From: a virus
Taxonomy: Duplodnaviria > Caudoviricetes
Strand: one strand, 5' to 3'
Virus record (IMG/VR): IMGVR_UViG_3300025372_000001
DNA: 64,000 bases
Under the pieces are notes generated by a model that saw nothing but the letters and a program-made list of their open reading frames with translations, was not told the origin of the DNA and ran no database searches. Below are positions 952 to 57,638 of the stretch, one piece after another (position 1 is the first letter of the stretch; every line of letters starts with the position of its first letter). The position numbers and the translations under genes were made by a program.

Positions 952-1968
952 TTAATGAACACTTGGTATCAATTTATTAATATAATCTTTTACAGTATCC
1001 ACTAATCCATCTTCAATTTTAATCAATGGTTCCCATCCTAATTCCCTCTTTGATTTACTATAATCAATTAAATATGTTTTATCATAACCGGGACGATCTT
1101 TAACAAATGTCTTCAAGGTATGATAACTTTTTTCTTTGGGATGAGTTTTATCAAAATAATCACAAATAATATCACAGATGTTTAGATTGGTTACATTCTT
1201 ATTTGTTCCAAATAGATAAGACTCTCCATTCTTACCGGCTTGTATTGCTCTTATAATGCCTCTACAATGATCCGTAACATGAATCCAATCCCTTTGGTGC
1301 AGACCGTCCCCATGAAGCGGAATTTCCTGCCAATTAACGCAACTATCAATAATCTTGGGAATCAACTTCTCTGTGTGTTGTCCCAATCCATAATTATTGG
1401 AACAATTAGTCACAATAACTGGAAAATTATAGGTATTATAATAAGCCTTTGCAATATGATCTGCTGCGGCTTTTGATGCAGAATAAGGATTATTAGGATG
1501 ATAAGGAGTTTCTTCAGTAAATGCTTTTCCTCCTTGATCTTCAACTGAGCCAAAGCACTCGTCCGTACTAACTGCTATCATTTTTCCTTGAATATTTTCA
1601 TCTGTCCAATAATATCTTGCTTCTTCTAAGATATTATATGTTCCCCAGATGTTAGATTCTAAGAAAGGTTTTGGTCCTTCAATAGAATTACAAACGTGTG
1701 TTTGGGCAGCAAAATGAACAATTAAATCAATCTTATATTTGCTTAAAATTTTATAAACAACATCAGTTGTGATATTGCCTCGAACAAATTCATATCTTTC
1801 ATCATACCAAGGTTCATGAGAAGGATTAGTTGCTGCATAATTCAGAATATCTAAATTAACAACTTTATTGAATTTAATTGGTTCTTCTTTGAAAAGAAGT
1901 TTAAGAAAATTCCATCCAATAAATCCACATCCACCTGTTACCAATACATTAAATCTTTTTTGTTCCAT
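952..1968 (-). CDS. rmlB: dTDP/UDP-glucose 4,6-dehydratase
   Basis: GGCGFIG, HFAAQTHV, STDECFG, YSASK, TNCSNNYG, RDWIHV motifs; TAAATA at 1982-1987. Confidence 0.95.
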   Translation of the reverse strand: MEQKRFNVLVTGGCGFIGWNFLKLLFKEEPIKFNKVVNLDILNYAATNPSHEPWYDERYEFVRGNITTDVVYKILSKYKIDLIVHFAAQTHVCNSIEGPKPFLESNIWGTYNILEEARYYWTDENIQGKMIAVSTDECFGSVEDQGGKAFTEETPYHPNNPYSASKAAADHIAKAYYNTYNFPVIVTNCSNNYGLGQHTEKLIPKIIDSCVNWQEIPLHGDGLHQRDWIHVTDHCRGIIRAIQAGKNGESYLFGTNKNVTNLNICDIICDYFDKTHPKEKSYHTLKTFVKDRPGYDKTYLIDYSKSKRELGWEPLIKIEDGLVDTVKDYINKLIPSVH

Positions 1969-2801
1969 GAGTCTAATGTTTTATTTAGGGACTCATATAT
2001 ATCAGGTAAAGGGATACCAAGATTAATTATTTTAGAAGAATCAAGAGTACAATTTGACCTTGGTACTTTTTCAATCTTTTTAATTTCATTAATATCGTCT
2101 AATATTTCCCATTTCCTATTTTTAGGAACTAATCCTTTTTCTTTTAACAAATTAGCAATATCTTGTGCTCTAACCTTTCCAGGATTAGTTACATTATATA
2201 CCCCGTAGGGGTGTTTATTAAGATAACATTCGGTTGTTGCCCTAACAAAATCATTAATATTAGAAATAGAATTATATTGATTTGTTAATTTATCAAATTT
2301 AATTATTTTAGAAATGAAATTCTTGGGATGATCGATATAATCAAAAGGAATACGTAGTCGCCAAATATAAGAATTATCTAAATAAAAAAATTTAATACCT
2401 TTCTCTCCTCCTATCTTGGTGGAAGAATACCACGATTTATCAAAATTAGGAATATCTTCTTCATTGAAATTATCATCACCGGAATATATGCAACCGGAGG
2501 AGACATGACCGAATCCAATTCCAAGGATTTTACAAGCCCATGCAAGAGTATGAGGAAGATAAGTGTTTGCATCTAAGCAAACGTGTTTATTATCTTCACA
2601 TGCATCAACATTAGGGATTCCTGTATATCCTGAACAATTGATAACAAATGATGGATTATATTTGGAAATTAAATCAAGAATTTCTCCTTTTAGGAAATTT
2701 TCATATCGAATAGATTCTGTTTTATATGGAATATTTTTAAATTTAAAATATTCTTGGTACTTCTTTCCTACGTAACCTGTTGCGCCGAATAATAAAATCA
2801 T
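1938..2801 (-). CDS. NDP-4-keto-6-deoxyglucose 3,5-epimerase/4-reductase (NRS/ER, UER1-like; RmlD superfamily)
   Basis: GATGYVG, GYTGIPNVDACE, SSGCIY, EEDIPNF, WYSSTK, RLRIPF, KNFISKI, YNVTNPG, PRSNCTLDSSK. Confidence 0.8.
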   Translation of the reverse strand: MILLFGATGYVGKKYQEYFKFKNIPYKTESIRYENFLKGEILDLISKYNPSFVINCSGYTGIPNVDACEDNKHVCLDANTYLPHTLAWACKILGIGFGHVSSGCIYSGDDNFNEEDIPNFDKSWYSSTKIGGEKGIKFFYLDNSYIWRLRIPFDYIDHPKNFISKIIKFDKLTNQYNSISNINDFVRATTECYLNKHPYGVYNVTNPGKVRAQDIANLLKEKGLVPKNRKWEILDDINEIKKIEKVPRSNCTLDSSKIINLGIPLPDIYESLNKTLDSWNKKDLMYW

Positions 2802-23342: not shown

Positions 23343-23825
23343 TTATTTACCTATGATTTGATCAATGTTCTTTTCTGTGATGATAAGGAAATCAATCTTT
23401 CTTCCTTTTTTAGTTTGCTCTTGACACCACTTTTTTGCTGCTTCCCATTTACATTGATTATTAGAAAATTCAATAGCCGCATATGCAACCGTACTAGGTT
23501 TGGCACGACTACTGTACTCCTTTAACACGGTCTGGTTTGAAGGCTTTGTTTCCACTATATATTCCTTAATTTCTTCTCCTATTTTAATAGCAAAATAAAA
23601 ATCTACAAAGTAACGAGCCATGCGGTTTTCTGTCTTTTTGAAGTAAGGTAAAACTATACTTTCACTCGACCACTTCACGACATTTGGGTTTGAATCTAAA
23701 ATAACCATCAATTGACTTTCTAAGCCACTTCTAAAAACAGGAAGAGTTTTATTTAAACATTTGGATTTATTCTTAGGAGTAAAAATACCTTGTTTAAATT
23801 CTCTGAAAGTTCTCTTCTTTCCCAT
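23343..23825 (-). CDS. head completion nuclease (T4 gp4 / TnsA-like)
   Basis: FKQGIFTPKN, FRSGLE, WSSESIVLPY, RYFVDF, VETKP, NQCKWEAA; late promoter. Confidence 0.9.
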   Translation of the reverse strand: MGKKRTFREFKQGIFTPKNKSKCLNKTLPVFRSGLESQLMVILDSNPNVVKWSSESIVLPYFKKTENRMARYFVDFYFAIKIGEEIKEYIVETKPSNQTVLKEYSSRAKPSTVAYAAIEFSNNQCKWEAAKKWCQEQTKKGRKIDFLIITEKNIDQIIGK

Positions 23826-24320: not shown

Positions 24321-24857
24321 ATGAAAACAATTATTACATCTATTTTATTTCTATTAACCCTAAATCTCTTTGCGGATGATTTGACTGATTTACAAAATCA
24401 GTATAACCGAGCAATTGCAAAAGTATCTGAGCCTATTAATAAAGTATATGTGAAAGAATTACAAGCATTATTAGAAAAGGTTTCCAAAGAGGGCAATCTG
24501 GATAAAGTTGCAGCGGTTACTACGGAATTGAAAAAGTTCTCAGAAGGAGAGAGTAGAGGGATTTTACTAGTAACCGAAAAAGGCAAAATTGAACGATTCT
24601 TTGTGGATAAGAAATGGCGAACCCCTTTTGGTACTACTTTTTGGTTTCAGAAAAACGGTCAAGGAATGAAAACTACTGGAACGGATACTTCTCCTTTTAC
24701 TTGGAGAATCATTGAAAATGGTATTGTTGAATATAATGGTCGAGTAGTTTCTTCCGAACCCATTAAAACTGAATATATTAAATTTCTTTCAAAGAAAGAA
24801 GCATACATAGGTAAATCTTCAGATAAAATTGATATTCCCCTTAGTCCCGGAAATTAG
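24321..24857 (+). CDS. secreted/periplasmic protein with signal peptide
   Basis: MKTIITSILFLLTLNLFA|DD; helical N-domain; sigma70 promoter immediately upstream. Confidence 0.75.
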   Translation: MKTIITSILFLLTLNLFADDLTDLQNQYNRAIAKVSEPINKVYVKELQALLEKVSKEGNLDKVAAVTTELKKFSEGESRGILLVTEKGKIERFFVDKKWRTPFGTTFWFQKNGQGMKTTGTDTSPFTWRIIENGIVEYNGRVVSSEPIKTEYIKFLSKKEAYIGKSSDKIDIPLSPGN

Positions 24858-25773
24858 ACGCATATGAGAAATCATCATTCATAGGAAACAAATCACAAGA
24901 TTCACTAAAATGTTTGATCATTTTAGTGAATTTTTCTTTAGAAACATCTTTTTTATAACAGTAACGATGTATCAAGAAATCTGGTAATTTATGTGCATCA
25001 GGAAGATTATTAATTGTTGAAGGAAAGGTATGATTGGAATAGTTTACGCCAAAAGTATTATAGAATGTTCCTAAACCATATTGAACATATGGAACATCTC
25101 GAAGGATACAATCAATGACAAAAGATGAATTATATGCAATTACAAATTCACAATTATCAATTACTGACATATTAGTTATCCCGTAAGGACAATTGTATTT
25201 GTTTGCTATTTCTGAAATTAGCTGATATGATTCTCCTCGATTCCAAGGATGCAATTTCAAAAATAAATTTTTCCCATAGAATTTACAGCAGTCTTCTATA
25301 AATTCATAATATTTTTTTGTACTAGTTACACTTTGAATAGCTCTGTCAGTTGGATGTTGAACAGCCAAAATTATTTTATCCCATACCAAATTCCTTTTAC
25401 CGTTTTCATGGTATTCTGTATCAAATTTTGATTGCAAATTTTTAGGTAAGCCGAATACAATGTCCTTGGCGCTTTTTCTATTTCCTAAATCAAAATTTGA
25501 AATAGTATCATATGCAGATTTGGTATTCAACGAAGAAGTGTGATAATTTCCGATAGTATCAATATATGCTGCTTCATTGAAAAATCCGGTTTCCATTATA
25601 CCATATTTCCTACCATGATTAGGAATAAATTCTTTATTGCCCCAATAAATAACATAATTGAATTCTTTATAAGGAACATTTTGGGTAGTTACTCCATATG
25701 AAATAACTTCTGCTTCAGTTTTAAAAGGCATTAAATTATAATTTAATGCATAATCAGGTATGAGAATATCCAT
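24841..25773 (-). CDS. capsule-biosynthesis-type (KpsS/KpsC-like) GT-B glycosyltransferase
   Basis: METGFF...IDTIG, LAVQHPTD, LKLHPW, VIAYNSS...DCILRDVP. Confidence 0.65.
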   Translation of the reverse strand: MDILIPDYALNYNLMPFKTEAEVISYGVTTQNVPYKEFNYVIYWGNKEFIPNHGRKYGIMETGFFNEAAYIDTIGNYHTSSLNTKSAYDTISNFDLGNRKSAKDIVFGLPKNLQSKFDTEYHENGKRNLVWDKIILAVQHPTDRAIQSVTSTKKYYEFIEDCCKFYGKNLFLKLHPWNRGESYQLISEIANKYNCPYGITNMSVIDNCEFVIAYNSSFVIDCILRDVPYVQYGLGTFYNTFGVNYSNHTFPSTINNLPDAHKLPDFLIHRYCYKKDVSKEKFTKMIKHFSESCDLFPMNDDFSYASNFRD

Positions 25774-26621
25774 TATACGTTATATAATTTCTTAGCATTT
25801 TCAAAAAGTTTATCCATTGTTGCCTTTGGTACTTCTTTAAATTCTTCAAAAATCTTTGGAAAGATTTGATGATTCGGATTCTTGGTTATTTCCATCCATC
25901 CCACGAAATAATTCCAAACTCTATCTTCTAATATATTAGTATAAGGTACTCCCAATGGTCGATCAAATCTGTGATTCCATTTGACATCAGGCAAGCACAT
26001 ACACCTATTTCCCGCATCTCTAAACTTTTGATGAATATACCCTTCTTCTCCCCCAAATCCTTTAAAATGGGGATTAAACCCTAACCATGCATCTTTCTTA
26101 CAAGAGAACATACCAAGTCCCATCATAGGTATTTCAAAAGGAACATTCATATCCAATGCAAAGGAATTAGTTGCCCAAACACCAAACATATGACTTCTCC
26201 AAATAGGATCAAAATGAGTAGAAATATTCTTTAAATCATCATAAATTAATGGTCCTTGAATCAAATCTTTTGTATTTGGATTTTTTTGATAATAACTTAA
26301 AAGGTTTTGAATTGCATAAGGTTCAAATAACACATGAGAATCTATACATAAAACAAATTCCCCTTGAGCATGTTTAAAGATTTGTTCTCTGGAAGAAGTA
26401 CTTTGTTTATCAATATAAGGAATATATTTCGTTCCACTGGATAAACAAAAACGTCGCAAGGCATCCGAATGTTTACCGTTTGGATTATTGTCAATGACAA
26501 TGATTTCTACTAAATGTTCTAATCCTTTTAATTGATAAAGGCGAAGGGATTGAATGGTGAAGAAAACACCATCATAATCATCATATGTTGCCATACCAAT
26601 AGTTAACCATTTTTGATTCAT
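25773..26621 (-). CDS. GT2 family glycosyltransferase, late
   Basis: LTIGMATYDD, IIVIDNNP, LCIDSH (DxH), GFGGEEGYI; TAAATA 26633-26638. Confidence 0.88.
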   Translation of the reverse strand: MNQKWLTIGMATYDDYDGVFFTIQSLRLYQLKGLEHLVEIIVIDNNPNGKHSDALRRFCLSSGTKYIPYIDKQSTSSREQIFKHAQGEFVLCIDSHVLFEPYAIQNLLSYYQKNPNTKDLIQGPLIYDDLKNISTHFDPIWRSHMFGVWATNSFALDMNVPFEIPMMGLGMFSCKKDAWLGFNPHFKGFGGEEGYIHQKFRDAGNRCMCLPDVKWNHRFDRPLGVPYTNILEDRVWNYFVGWMEITKNPNHQIFPKIFEEFKEVPKATMDKLFENAKKLYNV

Positions 26622-26666
26622 AATTTGACAATTATTTAATATGTCAAAGGCTGACTAGCTATTGAA

Positions 26667-28730
26667 TTAAGGCGAATAACCACAACTTATATCATTAGCA
26701 TTAATGAGTTCGTCATAGGTGTTACAAAATCCATCTGCATAATTCCCATGTAAATCAAACCCGACACAAAAAGTAGACATCAATGTTCCGGCTGGAGGAC
26801 AAGTAGTAGTGGTTGTGGTAGTTGTCGTAGTTGTGGTGGTTGTTGTAGTAGTAGGAGCAATTGTTGTCGTAGTTGTCGTAGTTGTGGTGGTTGTTGTAGT
26901 AGTAGGAGCAATTGTTGTCGTAGTAGGTGGAGGAGTTGTTGAGGTTGTGGAACAAGATGCTCCCACGGAATAACAACCGGCTTCTACGTGTAAATTAGTA
27001 CTACCTGCAACACAATTTGAACTATGAACAGAAAAAGGAGTTCCTGTTGAAGGTCCAATGGTTATAGGGAATAATGGATTACTATAAGGACTATACACCA
27101 TACTAATATTACCGTATCCATCAAAAGAGAAAGTATAAGTGGCAGTAGAACCTACGGCGAAATCACCTACAGGACATGGAGTTGGAGTGGTAGAAGAGGT
27201 TGTAGTTGTAGTTGGTGGAACATAATAATAACAAGTTTTTGTTCCAAATCCACCTGCACAAGATACAACAATATCAGCATAATTTGATCCCCAACTACCA
27301 TCTGGAGCAGGCAAATAACCATAAGTCGAACAACATTCAGGAGGAACAGTAGTGGTAGTCGGCATAGGACAACTTCCCGTAACACTGATAAGTCCTCCAA
27401 CTATTTCATATTTTGTTCTTCCTGGATAATTAGTACCGTAAACAATTACACCATCCACCACACCAGAAGGAACGCTATCAGGATTAGTTGGATCATAATT
27501 GGCACAATCACTCGGTTCAAAGAAATAAACACCCGATTTGACATAATAGGTGACAGTACTTGCCCCTTCTGTGCAATCTAAATAATATGTTTCGGTAAAA
27601 CATGCAGGACATACTGATAAAGACACTACTACTCCTGATGCAAAAACATATTTATTACCATCTTTGCTATATGTTCCTGTCACTAATTTATCAGGGGCAG
27701 GAGGAGTATTGGTGTACCAATAAGGCCCACATTGATAAAGCGTAGAAGTTCCTCCTGTTTCCCCACAGTTATTGAAGAACGTAGTTCCAATACAAGGAGG
27801 AGGAGTCGTGGTAGTACACATAGTTCCATCCCCTTGAATAACTCCGCCAACGAATTGATACCTATATCCTCCTCTATAACCATAACCATCATATTTGCTC
27901 ATTCCTTCATAGAAATAACCACAACAATAAGATAAGGTAAATCCTTCATCACTCTCAGGAGGAAAACATTCTGAATAGAAAAGATAGTTAGTGCATGGAC
28001 AAGGAGTTGTTGTAGGAGCAGGAGTAGTTGTTACAGGAATTAATGGATCAGTCCATTGATTATAAGGAGGAGTATGCCCCGCTGCACTAATACAAGAAAG
28101 ACTCGTATGCGTAATACTTCCGTCTGTAAATGTATAAACTCTTGAATAATTGATCCAATTACCATTTACTAAATCTCCTAAGAAATTATTATAACGATAT
28201 AAATGATCTTCTAAACTATAATTGAATAAATTATCGGGACGAATACCACATGCAGTTGCAAAATATTGTTGAGTTCCCAGCCATATTTTATTTTCACTAT
28301 AAGCAGTATTACATAAACCGGTGACTCCGACACCATAAGTTGAACCGTTATCTTCTAATACTACTGGAGGAATGACAAAATTATCAGCAGTTGCTCCATA
28401 TATATTAGTTCCATTATGGTTCCATTGATAAACCAATCCGGCAGTATTTCCTCTAGTAGTTATAGATAATCTAGCTCTATCCCCTAATGCTAAATATTGT
28501 TCTTGTACCCCGTCCCAAATAACGAACGTTGCAGAACATGGCGGACAATCTTGTATAGTTGCTAATCCTAATAAATGATATTGATTATTCAATAATATTG
28601 CAGAAGAAGGATATACTAATGTATTATCCACGGGCTGAATAGTGAATTTCTTATGTGTTCCTTCTAGATCAACAATGACGAATTTGTTGATATAATCTTG
28701 TAAATCGACATTAGCACTTATACGATTCAT
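26667..28730 (-). CDS. Cys-rich, Thr-rich mucin-like virion protein with one Ig-like segment
   Basis: Several (T)n-P tracts, many Cys; YQWNHNGTNIYGATADNFVIP...DNGSTYGVGVT resembles an Ig domain. Confidence 0.7.
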   Translation of the reverse strand: MNRISANVDLQDYINKFVIVDLEGTHKKFTIQPVDNTLVYPSSAILLNNQYHLLGLATIQDCPPCSATFVIWDGVQEQYLALGDRARLSITTRGNTAGLVYQWNHNGTNIYGATADNFVIPPVVLEDNGSTYGVGVTGLCNTAYSENKIWLGTQQYFATACGIRPDNLFNYSLEDHLYRYNNFLGDLVNGNWINYSRVYTFTDGSITHTSLSCISAAGHTPPYNQWTDPLIPVTTTPAPTTTPCPCTNYLFYSECFPPESDEGFTLSYCCGYFYEGMSKYDGYGYRGGYRYQFVGGVIQGDGTMCTTTTPPPCIGTTFFNNCGETGGTSTLYQCGPYWYTNTPPAPDKLVTGTYSKDGNKYVFASGVVVSLSVCPACFTETYYLDCTEGASTVTYYVKSGVYFFEPSDCANYDPTNPDSVPSGVVDGVIVYGTNYPGRTKYEIVGGLISVTGSCPMPTTTTVPPECCSTYGYLPAPDGSWGSNYADIVVSCAGGFGTKTCYYYVPPTTTTTSSTTPTPCPVGDFAVGSTATYTFSFDGYGNISMVYSPYSNPLFPITIGPSTGTPFSVHSSNCVAGSTNLHVEAGCYSVGASCSTTSTTPPPTTTTIAPTTTTTTTTTTTTTTIAPTTTTTTTTTTTTTTTTTCPPAGTLMSTFCVGFDLHGNYADGFCNTYDELINANDISCGYSP
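26821..26922. repeat. exact 51-nt tandem duplication (2 copies) in the Thr tract
   Basis: 26821-26871 is identical to 26872-26922; encodes TTTIAPTTTTTTTTTTT. Confidence 0.9.
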
Positions 28731-29764
28731 GGTATTAGAGTTTCTCCATAAGATGCATTAGGCAATTCACACTCAATAAGTTCAAATGTCGCTGCATATT
28801 TGCAATTTCTATCATTATAAATTTTATCTAAATCAACATAATCAAAACAAGAATTACAGTTAATAACTTGTGGAACAGAAGATAAAATATTAGGAATATA
28901 TTGCCACGTTCCTTTGTCATTCACAAAAGTAAAATGCCCAACAAAATTAGTATAAATGAATTTATTATCAAACATTATTAATACATCCGCAGGAATATCT
29001 GTTGCAACAGATAGCAAGCCTTTTTGCTTAGGAACGAACAAGGTATAATGTTGATCTAATAAACTATAAATTAATTGAATATCAGAAATACTAAAATTAG
29101 TTAATAAACTAGTACTAGAGAAAACATTATTAGAGAATACTATATCATTGAAGATCAAAAGTAATTGATCAGGAGTAGTGACTAATAGATCAGGACGTTT
29201 ATTTCTAACTAGAATAGCATTAACGGCATTGACGACTGTTGCCATTTGATTAGTAACACATAGATAATCTGTAATATCTTTCACCGAATGTCCGTAACTA
29301 TTAGCAATAGCAGTTAAGGAAGTGTAAGATAATTCTCCAATCGGATAGTTATCCATAATAACTGGATCATAAGATTTAATTAAAAATTCTAAACGAATAT
29401 GTTGATTATCAAGAAAGTTGGAAGCAGGAAAGGTGTTATTTAACCATAATAATGCATCCACATAATTTCCTACTGTTGCAAATCCTGGTCCATAAACAAT
29501 ATTAATCGGTTCTTTCCAAAATTCTTGAGAATTAAATACAATATTAGAAGTATCAGTATATCTTTGTTTATTTCTATCTAGGAAATTCTTTTGATCAATT
29601 AAATCATTTTTGATACTGTTAATAGTGTCAGAGAAACTTTGCCATTTATTAATGGTTTGTTGCAGAACACAAATACGATTATTCATTAGATGGAAATTAC
29701 GATTAATATCCTCTAATGTATTGCCAATTGGCGTGTATTCTGTTAATTCAGTAATCGTTGACAT
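28727..29764 (-). CDS. putative virion/tail protein, paralog of 29768-30472
   Basis: Shared IGNxLxxIxxNF, FWxxPIxIxY and WLNxxFP. Confidence 0.7.
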   Translation of the reverse strand: MSTITELTEYTPIGNTLEDINRNFHLMNNRICVLQQTINKWQSFSDTINSIKNDLIDQKNFLDRNKQRYTDTSNIVFNSQEFWKEPINIVYGPGFATVGNYVDALLWLNNTFPASNFLDNQHIRLEFLIKSYDPVIMDNYPIGELSYTSLTAIANSYGHSVKDITDYLCVTNQMATVVNAVNAILVRNKRPDLLVTTPDQLLLIFNDIVFSNNVFSSTSLLTNFSISDIQLIYSLLDQHYTLFVPKQKGLLSVATDIPADVLIMFDNKFIYTNFVGHFTFVNDKGTWQYIPNILSSVPQVINCNSCFDYVDLDKIYNDRNCKYAATFELIECELPNASYGETLIP

Positions 29765-29767
29765 TTA

Positions 29768-30472
29768 TTAATTAAAAAGAAGCGTATCTTGTTGCCAGAC
29801 CAAATTGATTGGATCAATGATATATTTATAACCTACTAATCTATCAATATATTTGTCAGGAACATCAATGGAAGCAGTGATACTTCCACAATCAACATTA
29901 CCATAGTTGACATAAGAATAAGTTCCTCGTTTGATACAAGAACAGAAACAATTAACCCCAACAGTCTTAATACCTTGATTTACTGTTTTGGTTAAATAAC
30001 GGTTGATTTCTTGATATTCTGGCGTAAAAATGTATAATTCTTGTCCTACAATAAAATTGAAACATAATCCATTTCTAATAGGGAAATTCTCATTTAACCA
30101 TGCAGTTACATTAGCCGTAATTTGATCAGTGTTGTTTGCATCAAATGGAAAAGGATAAATGATAGTGATCGGTTTTAACCAAAATGCCGAAGATTGTGAA
30201 ACAGTCGTAAATGTTTCTTGCCAACAAGAACTAAGGGTTGCAACGGTTTGTTGAGATTGAACCCAATTTGCACTAAGATTAGCAAAGGTATTAAAGGCAG
30301 AATTCCATAGATTTGTTGCACTGTATTCCAAATTACAAGTTTGAATATCTAAATTACGGAAATTATAAGTGATAGATGAAAGAGAATTACCGATACTTTC
30401 TCCATATGCAATAGGAATAACGTGTTGGCAAGTATCATCTACTTTACAAAGTTGATTATTTAAATAGTTCAT
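29768..30472 (-). CDS. putative virion/tail protein
   Basis: Same motifs as 28727-29764. Confidence 0.7.
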   Translation of the reverse strand: MNYLNNQLCKVDDTCQHVIPIAYGESIGNSLSSITYNFRNLDIQTCNLEYSATNLWNSAFNTFANLSANWVQSQQTVATLSSCWQETFTTVSQSSAFWLKPITIIYPFPFDANNTDQITANVTAWLNENFPIRNGLCFNFIVGQELYIFTPEYQEINRYLTKTVNQGIKTVGVNCFCSCIKRGTYSYVNYGNVDCGSITASIDVPDKYIDRLVGYKYIIDPINLVWQQDTLLFN

Positions 30473-30480
30473 TGTTTAAA

Positions 30481-33400
30481 TTATTTACAGAGGTCGATGC
30501 AGTTATCAAAGATTTCATAAGGTTGTTGGCAGCAATTATTTTCCAAATCTTTCCACGATTTAGTGAATCGTGTTCCTGGTAAGGTGTCATCCCAAGTAAC
30601 AGGATGGATACATTGGCAACACATTTGTTCCCAAACCCAACAAATAGGAAATTGATTATCTATTCCTGGTTGAACGAAAGAAATATTTCCCCATGTAATT
30701 CCACTAACATCAGGATTAATCACAGATTGCACATCAGTTAATTCTTTCCATGTATAAGGATTCTTGTATTTGCTAGTAAATTGTGGTCCGCTGATTCTAT
30801 GATAATCCCACGTCCAAATAATATTAGAAGCCGTAACACAAACAAATCTAACATCCAACATCCCCCGCAATGCTTCCAAATTATCCCTAATGATACCAAA
30901 ATTTCTATTAATGGTTTCCCAGTTAACCACCTCATTAACCCCTAATAATTGTAAACCAGATAATGTAGGTATCTCATTACTGTTAATAGGAAGAATAGAT
31001 TGACTAATAAAGTTACCTAATGCATCTGTATTATACACGAACTTATAATTAATATCATTCTTGAAATTACAAATATTATTATAAATCTTTTGAAAGCTAT
31101 TATTGAAGGTTACATCGGAAACCATTTCATCTGCAACAATCTCACAAGCAGAAACATTCCAAGAACTTAAAGTGTAATTAGGTGTTAATACCGAACTAGT
31201 AGTCAAGTAATCAATTGCTTTAATAATGATTCCGTCACAAACAATATATAACTCTTGATTCTTAACTTTAATAGAATTAATGGTTGTAACATTGGTTAAG
31301 GATTGACTACCTAAATATGATCCATTTAGATAATAGAAATACAAAGTATTGCCGTCAAATGTGATGATTCGATAGGAATGATTATCAGGAATAATAAATC
31401 CGGTTCCTTGAATATTGTTTAGAATGTTAAGGAGATTATGGTTACTATCCAGAATAATGATGGTTTGATTATCAGTTAGAATATAAATGTTATCTTGAAA
31501 GAAGTCAATAGCAACAGGCAAGTCGGAGACGGAATAATCAGTAAGAGTGATTGATTGGGTCCAATTGAGATATTTGTTATAAACCTTGATATTTCCGCTG
31601 TCTTTATCAACAACGTATAGATTGCCCGTAGAATCCATTTTAAAGTCCGTAGGATTGTTTAAACGGGTGCGACTGTCTCGTTTACCTACTCCTCCCCAAT
31701 AATGCGTTAAAACCACCGTACTATTCAAAGAATCAATATTGAAAACAAATACCTGTTTAAGAGTATTATCTAATAAAAATAATCTATCATCTTTAACCAG
31801 CATTCTTGTTGGATTGGTGAATAATTCTGCATTAGGAATACGATCAACTTCAAAGATTTCAGAAAGATGAATATCATCATTTTGGAAGGTTACTTTGTTA
31901 TCAGCAAGAAGCACATAATTATCCCCAAAGAAAGCCAAGTCTTTGATATTTTTTAAAGTGTAATTTTGGTATTCGGTTTGATAAGAATTGTCGAATCTCC
32001 ATTTAATAATTCCGCGACGTTCGCCATACCAACTTATATTATATTTCGGAAAAGTAGGATTAACAATCGTATGATTGTTGTTTAAGGTATTGAAATTATC
32101 AAATACTTTATTAACTTGATTATTGAATGTGGAAGCGAATTGCCAATCATCTGCATTGATTCCAATGTTATTGAAAGGAAGAGTAATATTGTCAGGAATT
32201 TCTCGGAATAAACCGGGATTATAATTTTCAAAAGAATCTTTAACAACTAATAGATCAGTATATTTCTTAGAAGATGGCGCATATAACCTATTGAAACTGG
32301 TGACAGAAGGACTGTATGTTCCCGCAGAAAGATACCTAGCAGTAATAGTGGTATTATTTGTAAATGAATATAAATTACCTAATCCATCATCTAATCTATA
32401 AGCATAATAATACCGAGATTGTGGAAAGTTTGTAGTTATATGAACTAATTCCCCGGAAGAAAGAAGATTCTTATTGACATAAATGTCCAATGATGGATAA
32501 TCAAATGCAGAAATATTGATAGAATTTGTTAGGAAATTCTCTGCAATAGGACACATAGTTGAATTAGCCAGTTTCTTCAGAACTGTTCCACTTGCCCAAA
32601 AAGTAAAGGATGTATCAGTATTTTCCTTAATAGATAAAACTCTGGTTGGATTAGAAGTAAACCTGGTGATATATGATTTATCATTTAAATGAACAGGATA
32701 AGTCCGAGAACCATCATTGACCATTAAATCATAATCAATAGAAACGATTTCGAATGGATTATGTTCAATTTCAAAATCAACATAATCGAGTGTTCTATTG
32801 ATGAAGAACCGATCAGCATTGGCTGATAAGGTTGCATTAAAAGGAGGAAGGTCTTCAAATCTTAATAATTGTTTATAGATTGAACTATCATCAGCAGATG
32901 CAACATTATAAATGGTTAAGTAATCTTCTGGTCCAAAATATTGATTAAATGCTTTAATATTGATTGGAGAAGCAGATAATACAGATAAGGCATTATTATC
33001 AATAGGATAATAGAATAAGGAAGAGTTGGAGGTTAGAGAAGGGCCATTAGTTACTTCATAAACATATTGATCAAAGCCGGGAGCAGCAGAGAATACAATA
33101 GAATTGGTATAACAAGGAACATTATAAGAAGTTAATCCGCTAGAAGAAACAGCATAGTTACTAACATTTAATTCTATTTGAGGATCATAGGCATATTGCG
33201 GAAAGCTGATATAATCAAAGGGTTGAATTCCGGTTAGAAGGAATACACACATACTTTCTTCAAAGTTATATGCTTTAAAATTACCGAAGATAGGAGTTGC
33301 TCCGAAAGCAGTGACACTTGCACAAATGGAACTAACTAAAGGCATTGCCACGGATAATCCTGAATAGTTGACATTATTAATTGTCCAAAGAATATTAGAA

Positions 33401-36240
33401 GGAATAGAAGAAACCGCAGAGATACCAGTTGAGCCAAGGCTGGTGATTTGCCAATTAAGGGCGGCAATATCAGCAATAAGAACAATATCCGCCGTTGCAG
33501 GGAATACAGTATTGACGAAGTTTTTACTATTGATATAAACTCCATTATCAGCAGAAAGAATGATGGAAAAATTACAATCAGGGAATTGACGGAAATTAAA
33601 TAATTTATCCGTAGTCATATTGTAATATTTTTGAGAGATATTACAATCGACATTGAAGGGAATTAGATTCGGATCATTATGGGATTTGATTGTGGAGAAA
33701 ATAGGAACAATGTGGGAATCTTGATAAGAAGCAGGATGAATGACATTTTCGGTTAAATTGACACGGTTCCAATCTTGCAGATGGAAGATTCCTTTAGGAT
33801 TGTGAAGGGTTTCTTTCCATGAGATATGAGCATCAAGAGGAACACGATAATTGAGTTGATTATAAACACACCATGCAGAAATGGGCACATGATTAATATA
33901 ATTCATATCGTATACATTTCCTTGTAATGTTCTTATATCAGTTGTAAGAGTCAATCCTACATTCTGCCATATACCTGTTACAGGAGGATACCATGTAACT
34001 GCTCCTGATATATCATATTCTTGAGAATAAAGTGTAAGAGTAGTTCTATCTACGCCTAGTCTATCCACATAGACATTTAAAGGTCCAGCAGGAATTAATG
34101 TATTAGTGGGAACAAATTTAGTTGTGGAGGTTGGAGGAGGAATAGTTAATACCTTCCAGAATCCATTCCAACCAACAGAAACTCCTGGTTCAGTACCACC
34201 GACTGATACGCTTGGTCCATAAGAAGCAAAATTAGAATTTACACATTCATAAGTTACTCCATTATGAAATACTTGATAACCCCCTAAATCAACACCTACT
34301 TCATCACTGGCATTAGAGGTATATTCAATACCTGCGATCCAATCAGGTTTAGTTGAAGAAGTTGCATATCCAATCGTTCCTATTTTCCATGCATTTTGCC
34401 ATTGATTACCTACTTCAGGAGCATAATCACTGCCATAATGAGCATTAATACTTTCATATAATGTTCCATTATACATGACTTGTGAACCTCTTTGATAAAT
34501 TCCAACAGATGCGCCTTCCCCAAGATAAGGAGGAAAGGTAGGATCATATGGAGGAATATAACTACTTGCATTAGATACAAATTCGGTTGTTTCAGATAAT
34601 CTAACATTTTCTGGAGGAAATATATCCCAAGAAATATTCATATTAGGATCATAATTCGGAAACATTGATACATTTAAATAAATTTGTGTATCAGATAAGG
34701 ACGAAATAGCAAAACTAATAGATGCTAAATTTTTATTAAGAATAAAATTAAATTGATCAGAATAATAATAAGAACCTGTAAATGAACTTATTTCAAATAC
34801 AACTGTGTGATTATTTGCGACATGATTATTATATAAACTAATATTTTGATTTAAAGGAAACCATTCTCCTTGAAGATATAATTCATTAGTAACTAGGTTC
34901 TTAGCACTTAATGTAGGATCATTGGTTAGTTCTTGGAATTTGGCCCGAATTTTATCTGTTCCTTCTGTAATTGCAAAAGTATTTTGGAAATAATTATCCA
35001 TCATATATGCAGACAATTGAACAGAAGATAGATTAGAATTATAGATAGTAAAATCTGGCCGGAAATGAATAGAACAACCTGAATAACTTTTTCCTGTGAC
35101 ACTTAGAGCAGAGGTCGTGAAATCAAAAGTAGAGAAATAAATACTTTCCGCCGAACTTAATGTATAAACATTCGGACTGGTATTATTGATGGAGAACTTA
35201 GTAATATCTGTGGCAGATGTTCGGGTTTGATAAGTGACATGAACAGGAGTATTTCTTGTAATATAAACATTATTATCAAGGGCAATATTAACTAAACCAG
35301 TATTATAGTTAATATTACTAGCTGGATCAACATAAGGATAAGGGATATTATACCCTTCATTAGGATAAAGACTATTGGTTTGTTCCAATTGTCTTCCGAC
35401 TAATTGAGTGTTATTAGCAGGATTTCCCCATACTGTATAATCATATGTTCGAGCAGCCAGATAATTAAGATCGATGGGTAATCCTACGAAGAAGCTATTA
35501 TTTCCTTGTGAACCGGTATAAGGATCAATTCTATTGTACCAGCGATAGGTTTGATTGTATTGAACTGCACTTTGATATGCCCAATATGCTCCTGGTGCCA
35601 TATTCAATGCAGTAATAGTTTTAAATGAAATAGATAATGATTCAGGAATGATATTATTATCCAATTGTAATTGTAAAGTATTGGCAGGATTTTGCATATA
35701 ATATGCAACATAATCCTTCTTTAATGCTGAATAATAGGCAGAAGTACAAACAATCTGACAATTATAACTACTTGGAGCAATAAGAGTTGGACTGGTATTA
35801 AGTTTTCTAAATTGTTCTTTAGAAATATCATCATTAATAACGAAAGGGGGAAGGAAACCGGAACTGACAACGATGGAATGGTTATCTAGTTTAGTTATGG
35901 CAGGATGAACATGGGTGGGAAAGACGGTGAAGGCAGAAACACCCGCAGAGAAAGAACCGTACAGATATTGATCAGGAGATTTAACTGTCCATGTTAAAGG
36001 GAAATTATCAGGAAGATTAATGAAACAAGAAGGAGTGGTAAAAGTAGTGTACGGCGGATTAACATTTTGTAATCCATAAGTGGAATCGAGGCTGAAACGT
36101 TCCACCCCAACATCATAATTACTATTAAAGAAATAAAGGCCGAGACGTTCTTGAACGGCAGCAACATCAATAGGATTCAAAGTAATTTGTAATACTTCTG
36201 TCGGAAATCCACTTAAAGCTGAAACACTATTGATAATCAT
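30481..36240 (-). CDS. 1919-aa late multidomain virion protein (CBM5/12-like repeats, PKD-like, NHL beta-propeller)
   Basis: YQRGSQVMYNGTLYES...W and VFHNGVTYEC...W; YLSAGTYSPSVT; LNNPTDFKMDSTGNLYVVD; TAAATA 36247-36252. Confidence 0.75.
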   Translation of the reverse strand: MIINSVSALSGFPTEVLQITLNPIDVAAVQERLGLYFFNSNYDVGVERFSLDSTYGLQNVNPPYTTFTTPSCFINLPDNFPLTWTVKSPDQYLYGSFSAGVSAFTVFPTHVHPAITKLDNHSIVVSSGFLPPFVINDDISKEQFRKLNTSPTLIAPSSYNCQIVCTSAYYSALKKDYVAYYMQNPANTLQLQLDNNIIPESLSISFKTITALNMAPGAYWAYQSAVQYNQTYRWYNRIDPYTGSQGNNSFFVGLPIDLNYLAARTYDYTVWGNPANNTQLVGRQLEQTNSLYPNEGYNIPYPYVDPASNINYNTGLVNIALDNNVYITRNTPVHVTYQTRTSATDITKFSINNTSPNVYTLSSAESIYFSTFDFTTSALSVTGKSYSGCSIHFRPDFTIYNSNLSSVQLSAYMMDNYFQNTFAITEGTDKIRAKFQELTNDPTLSAKNLVTNELYLQGEWFPLNQNISLYNNHVANNHTVVFEISSFTGSYYYSDQFNFILNKNLASISFAISSLSDTQIYLNVSMFPNYDPNMNISWDIFPPENVRLSETTEFVSNASSYIPPYDPTFPPYLGEGASVGIYQRGSQVMYNGTLYESINAHYGSDYAPEVGNQWQNAWKIGTIGYATSSTKPDWIAGIEYTSNASDEVGVDLGGYQVFHNGVTYECVNSNFASYGPSVSVGGTEPGVSVGWNGFWKVLTIPPPTSTTKFVPTNTLIPAGPLNVYVDRLGVDRTTLTLYSQEYDISGAVTWYPPVTGIWQNVGLTLTTDIRTLQGNVYDMNYINHVPISAWCVYNQLNYRVPLDAHISWKETLHNPKGIFHLQDWNRVNLTENVIHPASYQDSHIVPIFSTIKSHNDPNLIPFNVDCNISQKYYNMTTDKLFNFRQFPDCNFSIILSADNGVYINSKNFVNTVFPATADIVLIADIAALNWQITSLGSTGISAVSSIPSNILWTINNVNYSGLSVAMPLVSSICASVTAFGATPIFGNFKAYNFEESMCVFLLTGIQPFDYISFPQYAYDPQIELNVSNYAVSSSGLTSYNVPCYTNSIVFSAAPGFDQYVYEVTNGPSLTSNSSLFYYPIDNNALSVLSASPINIKAFNQYFGPEDYLTIYNVASADDSSIYKQLLRFEDLPPFNATLSANADRFFINRTLDYVDFEIEHNPFEIVSIDYDLMVNDGSRTYPVHLNDKSYITRFTSNPTRVLSIKENTDTSFTFWASGTVLKKLANSTMCPIAENFLTNSINISAFDYPSLDIYVNKNLLSSGELVHITTNFPQSRYYYAYRLDDGLGNLYSFTNNTTITARYLSAGTYSPSVTSFNRLYAPSSKKYTDLLVVKDSFENYNPGLFREIPDNITLPFNNIGINADDWQFASTFNNQVNKVFDNFNTLNNNHTIVNPTFPKYNISWYGERRGIIKWRFDNSYQTEYQNYTLKNIKDLAFFGDNYVLLADNKVTFQNDDIHLSEIFEVDRIPNAELFTNPTRMLVKDDRLFLLDNTLKQVFVFNIDSLNSTVVLTHYWGGVGKRDSRTRLNNPTDFKMDSTGNLYVVDKDSGNIKVYNKYLNWTQSITLTDYSVSDLPVAIDFFQDNIYILTDNQTIIILDSNHNLLNILNNIQGTGFIIPDNHSYRIITFDGNTLYFYYLNGSYLGSQSLTNVTTINSIKVKNQELYIVCDGIIIKAIDYLTTSSVLTPNYTLSSWNVSACEIVADEMVSDVTFNNSFQKIYNNICNFKNDINYKFVYNTDALGNFISQSILPINSNEIPTLSGLQLLGVNEVVNWETINRNFGIIRDNLEALRGMLDVRFVCVTASNIIWTWDYHRISGPQFTSKYKNPYTWKELTDVQSVINPDVSGITWGNISFVQPGIDNQFPICWVWEQMCCQCIHPVTWDDTLPGTRFTKSWKDLENNCCQQPYEIFDNCIDLCK

Positions 36241-36294
36241 TACCTTTATTTATTAACGATAGAAACCGGAGATGGATTATGATATATAGTAATA

Positions 36295-56714: not shown

Positions 56715-57638
56715 ATGATGCAAAATGCTACAAGTGAACAGTTACTATCTAATGTTTGGACATTAAAATATGCACCAACAACTATTGACGATCTTCTTCT
56801 ATCCGAGGAAAATCGTCAATTTTTTTCATCCCTTACCGGATTAAATAATAATTTATTGTTCATCTCTAGCCCAGGAGGAGGGAAAACTTCCACAGCCAAA
56901 ATTCTATCTAAGAAATTTTCTCCCTTCTCTTACATTTATATCAATGCATCAGAAGAAAATGGAATTGATGTAGTACGAACTAAGATTAGTAATTTCATTT
57001 CTATTCAATCATTCGATGGTAATCCTAAAGTGGTTATCCTTGATGAAATTGATGGAGCAACTACAAACTTTCAACAAGCATTGAGAGGCGTAATGGAAGA
57101 ATACCTAGAAGATGTTAAATTTATTCTTACCGGAAACTTTAAACATAAAATTTTAGAAGCCATTCAAAGCAGATGTCAAACCTTTGATTTTTCTTTGAAT
57201 ATTAAAGACGTTTTTGCTCGAATGATTTATATTCTTAAGCAAGAAAAGATTACTATTCTTGAAGAAGATAAGAAAGCTCTTGTAACTCTTCTCAAGTCTC
57301 ATTTTCCTGATATTCGTAAGACTATCAATGAATTACAAAAATGTTGTATTACAGGTAAATTCATTCCTAATATCAAGAAAGAAGAAACCCTTTCTTCTAC
57401 TATTGTGGAAAGATTAAAAAATAAAACAAATGTGTGGGAAATTAGGAAATACGTGCTTGCGCATGAACAAGATTTCAATAGTGATTATCATTTCTTAATG
57501 AAGAAATTGTTTGATCATTATGTCTTAGAAGAGAATGCAGGAAAGGTATTATTGATTGTTGACGCCATGTATAAACACAGTATTGTTGCAGATGCAGAGG
57601 TAAACTTTGCAGGTCTTTTAATCAATTTAGCAAAATAA
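56715..57638 (+). CDS. sliding-clamp loader ATPase subunit (RFC / T4 gp44-like)
   Basis: WTLKYAP, SPGGGKTS, INASEENGID, ILDEIDG, AIQSRC, FPDIRKTINELQ. Confidence 0.95.
   Translation: MMQNATSEQLLSNVWTLKYAPTTIDDLLLSEENRQFFSSLTGLNNNLLFISSPGGGKTSTAKILSKKFSPFSYIYINASEENGIDVVRTKISNFISIQSFDGNPKVVILDEIDGATTNFQQALRGVMEEYLEDVKFILTGNFKHKILEAIQSRCQTFDFSLNIKDVFARMIYILKQEKITILEEDKKALVTLLKSHFPDIRKTINELQKCCITGKFIPNIKKEETLSSTIVERLKNKTNVWEIRKYVLAHEQDFNSDYHFLMKKLFDHYVLEENAGKVLLIVDAMYKHSIVADAEVNFAGLLINLAK

Follow-up and report, generated by a model that had tools for sequence, protein, structure and literature searches.

A candidate phage operon pairing a ppGalNAc-T-like glycosyltransferase with a poly-threonine, mucin-like protein

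Virion protein glycosylation has been shown experimentally in mycobacteriophages, where it is said to be the subject of work by Freeman et al. in 2023 (Cell Host Microbe). The serine-rich-repeat adhesins of Gram-positive bacteria rely on a GtfA/GtfB initiator and on variable accessory glycosyltransferases (GTs). According to one account, the mycobacteriophage glycans sit at the C-termini of capsid and tail-tube subunits (PMC12619734). Giant viruses, through the fibrils of Mimivirus and in the chloroviruses, have autonomous glycosylation (reviewed in PMC9614988). Jumbo phages and T4-like phages from aquatic habitats encode many GTs, which tend to be dismissed as modifiers of DNA or of the host surface. 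Here we analyse a 64,000-nucleotide (nt) stretch of the Caudoviricetes virus record IMGVR_UViG_3300025372_000001 from IMG/VR (the whole stretch is called the window), in which six co-directional genes on the minus strand (36240-24841) join a Thr/Cys-rich protein to a family 2 glycosyltransferase (GT2) and a second GT. The six genes probably form one operon, transcribed late, for a surface protein that the phage itself glycosylates, with O-glycosylation of the mucin-like protein taking place in the cytoplasm.

The block comprises the following open reading frames (ORFs), listed in gene order with protein lengths in amino acids (aa):

30481..36240, minus strand: p1919, a candidate fibre protein of 1919 aa that heads the block (ORF call)
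29768..30472, minus strand: p234, a small protein (ORF call), kept in the related contigs L006, L220, L221 and L222
28727..29764, minus strand: p345, a paralogue of p234 (ORF call)
26667..28730, minus strand: Thr/Cys-rich mucin-like protein of 687 aa, the proposed glycan acceptor (ORF call and composition)
25773..26621, minus strand: GT2, 282 aa, a lectin-less GT-A enzyme resembling polypeptide N-acetylgalactosaminyltransferases (ppGalNAc-Ts), proposed to initiate polypeptide O-glycosylation
24841..25773, minus strand: second GT, 310 aa, a KpsC/KpsS/WbbB-like predicted retaining ulosonic-acid transferase of the beta-Kdo type

The genes are tightly packed, with an overlap of 4 nt between p345 and the Thr-rich gene and of 1 nt between the two GT genes, and the N-terminal domains of p234 and p345 are paralogous (hhalign 98.3%, E 1.9e-14). 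The six ORFs agree with a sequence-only reading of this DNA, which had placed both GTs directly after the Thr/Cys-rich gene on the same strand. Its core idea, that the phage GTs decorate the adjacent Thr-rich protein and not DNA, is strongly supported by the fold of GT2 and by its linkage to poly-Thr genes, whereas the tail adhesins and the GT4-like gene that it also named found no support.

In Pfam, GT2 matches only the generic Glycos_transf_2 family (PF00535, E 6.7e-10), with no further domain and no membrane anchor or signal peptide seen by eye; in PHROG it has a weak match to GtrB-like O-antigen conversion. Its AlphaFold2 (AF2) model is a single GT-A domain of high predicted local accuracy (pLDDT 94.9). 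A Foldseek search with this model returned ppGalNAc-Ts (family GT27) as all of the top 50 entries in the PDB and all of the top 30 in Swiss-Prot (E about 1e-14, query template-modelling (TM) score 0.70-0.76). A Foldseek-independent scan of 48,161 chains pointed to the same enzymes, with GalNAc-T1 at a VIA Z of 22.8 (260 residues, root-mean-square deviation 3.1) and TgGalNAc-T3 at 21.7. These two stood 3-4 Z units above every other GT-A family (Z at most 18.7); TarP/TarS scored about 16.3-16.5 and GtrB 14.1. Furthermore, when the GT2 family profile was compared with PDB sequences, 14 of the 24 matches were ppGalNAc-Ts, including GalNAc-T10 at E 1e-6. The residues that carry this likeness lie at three places:

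26334-26342, minus strand: D94-S-H96 of GT2
26037-26060, minus strand: G188..Y195 of GT2 (GFGGEEGY)
25971-25973, minus strand: H217 of GT2

D94, H96 and H217 are invariant, and GFGGEEGY nearly so, in an alignment of 55 GT2 homologues. The profile alignment with GalNAc-T10 pairs the DxH (here DSH), the third His and GFGGEEGY with WGGEQYE, the Trp being replaced by Phe. GT2 therefore has in common with ppGalNAc-Ts, its closest structural match by two aligners, a DxH and a distal His as Mn ligands and a GGE(E/N) motif at matching spacing. It differs in being just 14-19% identical to them and in having neither the type II membrane anchor nor the C-terminal lectin domain of ricin type found in the GT27 enzymes, which work in the secretory pathway; the phage enzyme would be cytoplasmic. 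A nearer analogue may be family GT60, polypeptide alpha-GlcNAc-transferases that are lectin-less and include Skp1 Gnt1, an enzyme of the cytoplasm; we know of no solved GT60 structure.

The proposed acceptor is likewise of the kind that ppGalNAc-Ts use, a protein with Pro/Thr/Ser-rich mucin-like tracts. The 687-aa protein contains 16.9% Thr, 7.9% Pro and 7.6% Ser together with 31 Cys residues, shows no signal peptide by eye and has homologues in L006, L220 and L222 (in L220, a stretch of N from an assembly gap breaks the gene). Five mucin-like tracts can be delimited:

26772..26957, minus strand: main Pro/Thr/Ser tract and the longest (aa 592-653), in which Thr forms two runs of 14-17 residues
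27990-28052, minus strand: Pro/Thr/Ser tract
27795-27824, minus strand: Pro/Thr/Ser tract
27339-27386, minus strand: Pro/Thr/Ser tract
27171-27218, minus strand: Pro/Thr/Ser tract

Cys-rich modules of the type CCSVYGY...WG...SCAxGFGxKTCY lie between the poly-Thr tracts of these proteins, in one copy in the window (26667-28730) and in two or three copies in relatives (L006:2294-3871, L220:7300-9150). A Hoc-like immunoglobulin domain, which the N-terminus had suggested by eye, found no support in Pfam and was dropped.

It is the genomic linkage to poly-Thr ORFs that points to a polypeptide acceptor for GT2; that the sugar transferred is GalNAc is putative. Homologues of GT2 at about 50-97% identity occur on 116 IMG/VR contigs. 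The linkage was measured on 1602 ORFs called and clustered from the window and 80 GT2-bearing viral loci, a poly-Thr ORF being defined by at least 8 Thr within 12 residues. Such ORFs are rare (34 of the 1602), and 26 of the 34 occupy position -1 or -2 of GT2, upstream and on the same strand. They fall into at least eight unrelated sequence clusters, some with an FGE-sulfatase/C-type-lectin-like domain and others with fn3 and discoidin domains. In the GT2 tree, poly-Thr-adjacent copies are interleaved with the others, and the well-supported branches force at least seven changes of context. Furthermore, a locus reached independently through the KpsC-like protein carries, in this order, tail-fibre genes, a 779-aa poly-Thr protein, GT2 and the KpsC-like gene. 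A reverse search, over 80 IMG/VR loci chosen by a run of 12 ACN codons, found GT2 in four, immediately downstream of the poly-Thr ORF in three and 2.3 kb downstream in the fourth.

Other genes beside GT2 in these loci were recorded in passing. A radical SAM/SPASM enzyme adjoins it in L066 (8952-10004), L016 and L063 (cluster 114), and the L066 gene is flanked by two poly-Thr proteins; the enzyme may make another modification of Cys/Thr-rich proteins. On L033-type phage contigs, GT2 has several DUF1501 genes (E 1.8e-109) beside it, whose products bear Tat-like leaders (L033:10863-12134; paralogues at 231-2761). DUF1501 is typical of Planctomycetes and Verrucomicrobia, and we take its presence on these contigs as a possible clue to the host.

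Bacteria encode the same pairing. Relatives of GT2 were present in 424 of about 185,000 species genomes scanned, mostly metagenome-assembled genomes of Alpha-, Gamma- and Deltaproteobacteria type, with isolates that include Bradyrhizobium, Yoonia and Desulforhopalus. The bacterial form is a protein of about 600 aa with the GT2 domain at its C-terminus and an HPr-kinase-like domain at its N-terminus (more than 1100 proteins, all unnamed), often with an appended GT25, LicD or sulfotransferase domain, and a family of roughly 400-aa proteins recurs beside its gene. In 20 of the 80 bacterial loci compared (L224-L303), small Thr-rich proteins (15% Thr against a background of 5.4%) are encoded nearby and share a Tat/Sec-like leader, RRxALKKI...KWxKPVxxSVxLPAHAQ. 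Stand-alone bacterial copies of GT2 follow giant mucin-like ORFs, one of which has 1778 aa and 41% Thr. At the level of sequence, this pairing is independent support for a polypeptide acceptor. The setting of the HPr-kinase-like/GT2 genes resembles, by analogy, that of peptide-modification clusters; our literature search found nothing relevant on such a bacterial HprK-GT2 cluster. ORFs of PqqD, sulfotransferase and nucleotidyltransferase type, judged by eye only, lie nearby in L257:4240-10846 and L286:4993-9961.

A search with p1919 (homologues of 31-62% identity) added three more contigs to the relatives of the block. All five genomes, L006 included, keep the order p1919, p234, p345, Thr-rich gene and GT2, and p1919 homologues (30-96% identity) are invariably first in this block. 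L221 encodes a fusion protein of 589 aa in which the Thr/Pro-rich region follows directly on a p345-like domain. A Thr-rich protein in relatives devoid of the GTs would speak against the pairing; none was found, all five genomes with the Thr-rich protein having retained GT2. What follows GT2 is a variable segment and then p113, a TnsA-N-like gene and PhoH. The segment holds the KpsC-like gene in the window and in L221, GT25 and Fringe-like genes in L001 (where GT2 is 97% identical), GT11 and Fringe-like genes in L222, and nothing in L006. The relatives thus draw their downstream enzymes from families that also extend mucin glycans (Fringe/GT31-like, GT11, GT29), a further likeness to the ppGalNAc-T system. 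A steady first enzyme with strain-variable followers fits an initiating transferase whose glycan is diversified.

The segment of L220 (9151-12695), from a block relative of 46% identity, deserves separate description. It begins with a 161-aa fragment of the GT29 sialyltransferase family (E 1.9e-13), continues with a 673-aa fusion of a GT2 to methyltransferase domains and ends with an adenosine 5'-phosphosulfate (APS) kinase. The GT29 fragment and the APS kinase hint at sialylated or sulfated glycans.

In the window, the segment is filled by the KpsC-like enzyme. Its AF2 model (pLDDT 93.2) retrieved KpsC and WbbB as the top 21 PDB entries in Foldseek (E 4e-9 to 5.5e-5, TM 0.57) and LpsZ, KpsC, LipA, FixF, KpsS and LipB in Swiss-Prot. 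Profile libraries were less informative: Pfam Capsule_synth and NCBIfam gave no match, and the single Pfam signal, to the polysialyltransferase family PF07388, fell below threshold (23.1 bits against a cut-off of 23.3). The defining motifs of retaining Kdo transferases are QXXXD, whose Asp is the nucleophile, and HP (PMC10148158), and both are present:

25345-25359, minus strand: Q139xxxD143 of the second GT
25246-25251, minus strand: H175-P176 of the second GT

Sixty metagenomic homologues were collected, and Q139, D143, H175, P176 and E61 are invariant in the 44 aligned. The label "KpsS/KpsC-like" in the sequence-only reading was therefore right by fold and motifs. Like KpsC/KpsS (GT107) and WbbB (GT99), the phage protein has a modified GT-B-like fold with invariant QxxxD and HP; unlike KpsC and WbbB, to which it is about 13% identical, it consists of one module of 310 aa and lacks a C-terminus that would anchor it in the membrane. 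The known Kdo transferases act on lipid or O-antigen, whereas the acceptor proposed for the phage enzyme is a glycoprotein. The family also occurs before the terminase gene in marine phages, beside sugar-nucleotide enzymes. In another T4-like phage (L096/L097:4900-8933), a KpsC-like GT lies between the genes for the major capsid protein (gp23) and gp15/portal, in a head-gene module that also encodes a different GT2, a GT11 fucosyltransferase and methyltransferases.

The usual acceptors of this fold, which are lipid- or glycan-linked, raise the alternative that both GTs remodel host lipopolysaccharide or capsule during infection, for example to block superinfection or adsorption to debris. The Thr-rich neighbour would then be incidental, since accessory genes often insert where a fibre operon ends. 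The weak GtrB-like PHROG match of GT2 would agree with this, as would the ascription of many GTs of aquatic T4-like phages to cell-surface modification (PMC12801897). However, GT2 has no membrane segment by eye and polypeptide transferases outrank the polyprenol-phosphate GT2s in the structural scan (22.8 against 14.1 for GtrB). The linkage is, moreover, specific to poly-Thr ORFs and recurs in tail contexts, in non-tail contexts and in bacteria. We consider envelope remodelling quite improbable.

A hexamer, TAAATA, marks the start of several genes in the block:

36247..36252, minus strand: TAAATA, 12 nt before the p1919 start (at 12-21 nt in L220, L221 and L222)
30482-30487, minus strand: TAAATA before p234
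26633..26638, minus strand: TAAATA, 17 nt before the GT2 start (at 12-15 nt in L006, L222, L002 and L003)

There are just 85 copies of TAAATA on both strands of the window, yet a copy lies 8-20 nt ahead of the start codon in about 22 of 93 ORFs, against about one expected by chance. They include p1919, p234 and GT2 as well as rmlB-like and RmlD-like genes outside the block; the sequence-only reading had already assigned GT2 and rmlB a TAAATA of their own. Before the p1919, p234 and GT2 homologues of relatives, the position of the hexamer is held although the flanks have diverged. As judged from the letters themselves, TAAATA is a real promoter-like element. The clamp loader and similar genes have TTGACA-type promoters instead. 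By analogy with the T4 promoter TATAAATA, we infer that the genes preceded by TAAATA may be expressed late. The TAAATA of GT2 lies in the loop of a 6-bp inverted repeat, TTGACA...TGTCAA (26622-26647, minus strand). A perfect TATAAATA stands 11 nt upstream of a gene (23343-23825, minus strand) for a protein with a TnsA-like endonuclease N-terminal domain (E 1.4e-14), a gene that every relative keeps at this place, with the GT cassette on one side and PhoH on the other.

In the mechanism that we favour, the Thr/Cys-rich protein would be made in the cytoplasm, with no signal peptide, and the soluble GT2 would place the first sugar, from a UDP-sugar of host or phage, on Thr (or Ser) of the poly-Thr/Pro tracts. 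Next, the KpsC/WbbB-like enzyme would attach an ulosonic acid from a CMP-activated donor, for example Kdo from the pool of a Gram-negative host, and other GTs encoded elsewhere in the genome may lengthen the glycan. Joined to p1919, p234 and p345, the glycoprotein would become part of a virion appendage, a fibre or whisker with a mucin-like glycan brush. The composition of the brush would vary among strains because the cassette of extension enzymes is swapped among relatives. In this mechanism the folds, the motifs, the linkage of the genes, the variability of the cassette and the conserved promoter motif are computational findings, and the acceptor, the donor sugars, the timing and the place in the virion are proposals.

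Several observations weigh against this reading. The first concerns the virion, the location that is the weakest step and that we infer from the late-type promoters and by analogy with distant phages. None of the block's proteins has a counterpart among known virion families or T4 fibre proteins: p1919, p234 and p345, taken for virion proteins in the sequence-only reading, have no virion family, PHROG or fold match, and the "tail adhesins" have no homology to T4 gp34-38 (hhalign probability at most 6.7% in all 20 pairs formed with p1919, p234, p345 and the N-terminal domain of the Thr-rich protein). The order of gene sizes is similar to that of a T4-type long tail fibre operon, a name that we do not use because the hhalign comparison was negative. 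As for p1919 itself, its NHL and CBM5/12 signals are weak and below the Pfam threshold.

The remaining points on that side concern the enzymes, the promoter and the gene contexts. GT-A folds are related to one another, and the top fold rank therefore does not fix the acceptor of GT2; a complex prediction of GT2 with Mn and a poly-Thr tract scored 0.02, which counts neither for nor against. Some non-structural genes (Metallophos, AAA_28 and the GIY-YIG endonuclease) likewise have a TAAATA ahead of them, so that "late" follows only from the T4 paradigm. The KpsC-like gene is also present without GT2 in other phages. Finally, in about 40 of the 80 viral loci GT2 sits in a replication module with no poly-Thr gene nearby, and among ten contigs with such modules an 8-Thr run was found in five and was lacking in one rated 100% complete. 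Against a role of these copies in DNA glycosylation, the two most complete replication-module genomes (94% and 86%) encode Thr/Cys-rich proteins elsewhere, next to virion-structural, tail-spike and tail-fibre genes.

The lack of a virion family match would agree with a second possibility, in which GT2 glycosylates the Thr-rich protein and the product is not part of the virion: it might be released at lysis, or work inside or on the infected cell, for instance as a matrix or adhesion factor, a decoy or a shield on cell debris. The bacterial counterparts are exported, as their Tat/Sec-like leaders indicate, and a gene for a secreted-type protein travels with the block. Yet the phage poly-Thr proteins inspected have no signal peptide by eye, and the p1919 operon has late-type promoters. 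In other, distant phages, poly-Thr genes are found among Mtd_N/phage-tail-repeat (PTR) fibres and among tail-fibre or virion-structural PHROGs (phrog_4492, 523, 6002, 11355), and their products carry the fn3, discoidin or FGE/C-type-lectin-like domains noted above. A non-virion product is in our judgement unlikely.

The replication-module loci led us to consider glycosylation of phage DNA as well, through hypermodification of a hydroxymethylated base, as by the T4 glucosyltransferases and the DNA GTs of metaviromes. There the genes run PhoH ... RecA ... DnaB, DnaG, deoxynucleoside monophosphate (dNMP) kinase, PD-(D/E)XK nuclease, GT2, acidic protein, Pol III alpha and exonuclease; the place of GT2 between kinase and nuclease on one side and Pol III alpha on the other would suit a DNA-modifying role, as would a neighbour in L008 with a weak TET-associated GT signal; it is in L013-type loci that the dNMP kinase is adjacent. 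However, T4 beta-GT is a GT-B enzyme, and the reported GT-A DNA transferases are JGT/TarP-like and carry R...DDD...EDY/F motifs (Pyle et al., bioRxiv 10.1101/2023.12.21.572611), whereas the metal site of GT2 is DxH...H and ppGalNAc-Ts stand above TarP in Z. The tree shows a single family in which copies from replication modules are intermixed with copies next to poly-Thr genes, the bacterial homologues are chromosomal and lie beside exported Thr-rich proteins, and the scanned window ORFs include no base hydroxymethylase, TET/5mYOX or C5-methyltransferase gene. On fold, motif, tree and bacterial context, DNA glycosylation was rejected as the leading explanation and is very improbable.

Adjacency could also be meaningless, the poly-Thr tracts being flexible linkers and the acceptor of GT2 an unrelated small molecule or glycan. 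Half of the GT2 loci have no poly-Thr gene nearby, and in the reverse search 76 of the 80 random poly-Thr loci had no GT2 within the flanks taken. Such a view is hard to reconcile with the crowding of 26 of 34 poly-Thr ORFs at -1 or -2 among 1602, with the repeated changes of context on the tree and with the independent finding of the same pairing in bacteria, and we give it hardly any credence.

A self-glycosylated surface protein, the reading that we retain for the block, would also belong to something wider. Tentatively, and with rather less confidence than we place in the operon itself, we suggest that bacteria and many phage lineages share a large family of polypeptide O-glycosyltransferases, lectin-less, ppGalNAc-T-like and so far undescribed, to which GT2 belongs. 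Its members would build mucin-type glycans on poly-Thr domains, with extenders swapped between strains (Fringe/GT31, GT11, GT29 and GT25, and sulfation through APS kinase), giving T4-like and other aquatic phages a strain-variable brush on their fibres and taking mucin-type O-glycosylation beyond eukaryotes. Our literature search found nothing relevant on ppGalNAc-T-like enzymes of phages or on poly-Thr phage proteins, and no published account of such an enzyme, from phage or bacterium, with a poly-Thr partner. The pairing offers the GTs of aquatic T4-like and jumbo phages a testable acceptor, the adjacent mucin-like poly-Thr protein, and an enzyme class, the cytoplasmic ppGalNAc-T-like initiator. 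If true, mucin-type O-glycosylation would have a counterpart among prokaryotes and viruses, one whose extension cassettes can be swapped, and this would explain how the surface properties of phages, such as adsorption, stickiness and evasion of grazing or defence, could diversify fast. The enzymes, compact and soluble, could also serve the production of mucin-like glycoproteins in bacteria.

The remainder of the window places the block in a T4-like genome of about 32% GC. Beside the block, on one 262-kb contig, are T4-type replication genes (a gp44-like clamp loader, RNase H, 5'-3' exonuclease, DNA ligase, PhoH and ThyX), and a GIY-YIG/I-TevI-like endonuclease is also encoded in the window. 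The features outside the block that bear on the argument are:

56715-57638: gp44-like clamp loader with a Gp44_lid domain
24321..24857, plus strand: convergent gene of 178 aa with an N-terminal signal-like peptide and a sigma-70-like (TTGACA-type) promoter
952-1968, minus strand: rmlB-like NDP-glucose 4,6-dehydratase (TIGR01181, 343.6 bits), TAAATA upstream
1938-2801, minus strand: divergent RmlD-family reductase, TAAATA upstream

The top GenBank phage match of the clamp loader is 36% identical, and its matches are T4-like phages of cyanobacteria, Campylobacter and Vibrio. GenBank phages contain no relative of the region's DNA, of GT2, of the KpsC-like protein or of p1919 (megablast, tblastn). 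The sequencing runs searched that contain the region are freshwater metagenome DNA only, with no RNA run among them. An IMG/VR scan returned nothing for p1919, protein-atlas look-ups had no usable match for p1919 or p345, and phmmer against PDB sequences gave none for p1919 or the KpsC-like protein and noise only for the Thr-rich protein. The 178-aa gene overlaps the end of the GT operon by 17 nt. Its homologues occupy the same place on the opposite strand in L001, L221 and L222; it travels with the cassette and is apparently expressed differently from it. The sequence-only reading was correct about an rmlB and an NRS/ER-type enzyme, as the rmlB-like and RmlD-family genes are real. This pair could possibly supply a 6-deoxyhexose, but it lies 23 kb from the cassette and no link to it was found, so that the rhamnose-containing, perhaps capsule-like glycan of that reading is putative. 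The GT4-like gene of the same reading was not recovered: no window ORF of at least 200 aa matches Glycos_transf_1, and PDB sequences gave no match for two unannotated ORFs examined for that role.

How the proposed system relates to those described differs from case to case. The serine-rich-repeat adhesins are alike in logic only: the gene for a repeat-rich acceptor has as neighbours a conserved initiating GT, which is cytoplasmic, and extending GTs that vary with the strain; there the initiator is a GT-B enzyme (GT4), the acceptor is Ser-rich, export is by accessory Sec and no homology links the two. Giant viruses likewise encode a repertoire of GTs together with nucleotide-sugar enzymes (a 4,6-dehydratase and an RmlD/NRS-ER-type reductase) for surface structures, but they are viruses of eukaryotes and use other GT families and acceptors. 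The mycobacteriophages, by the account cited above, are alike in that GTs encoded by the phage attach O-glycans to its structural proteins within the cytoplasm of the host, as is proposed here. In contrast to them, the present system would have a dedicated mucin-like protein, aquatic phages of Gram-negative type, a ppGalNAc-T-like initiator and a swappable extension cassette.

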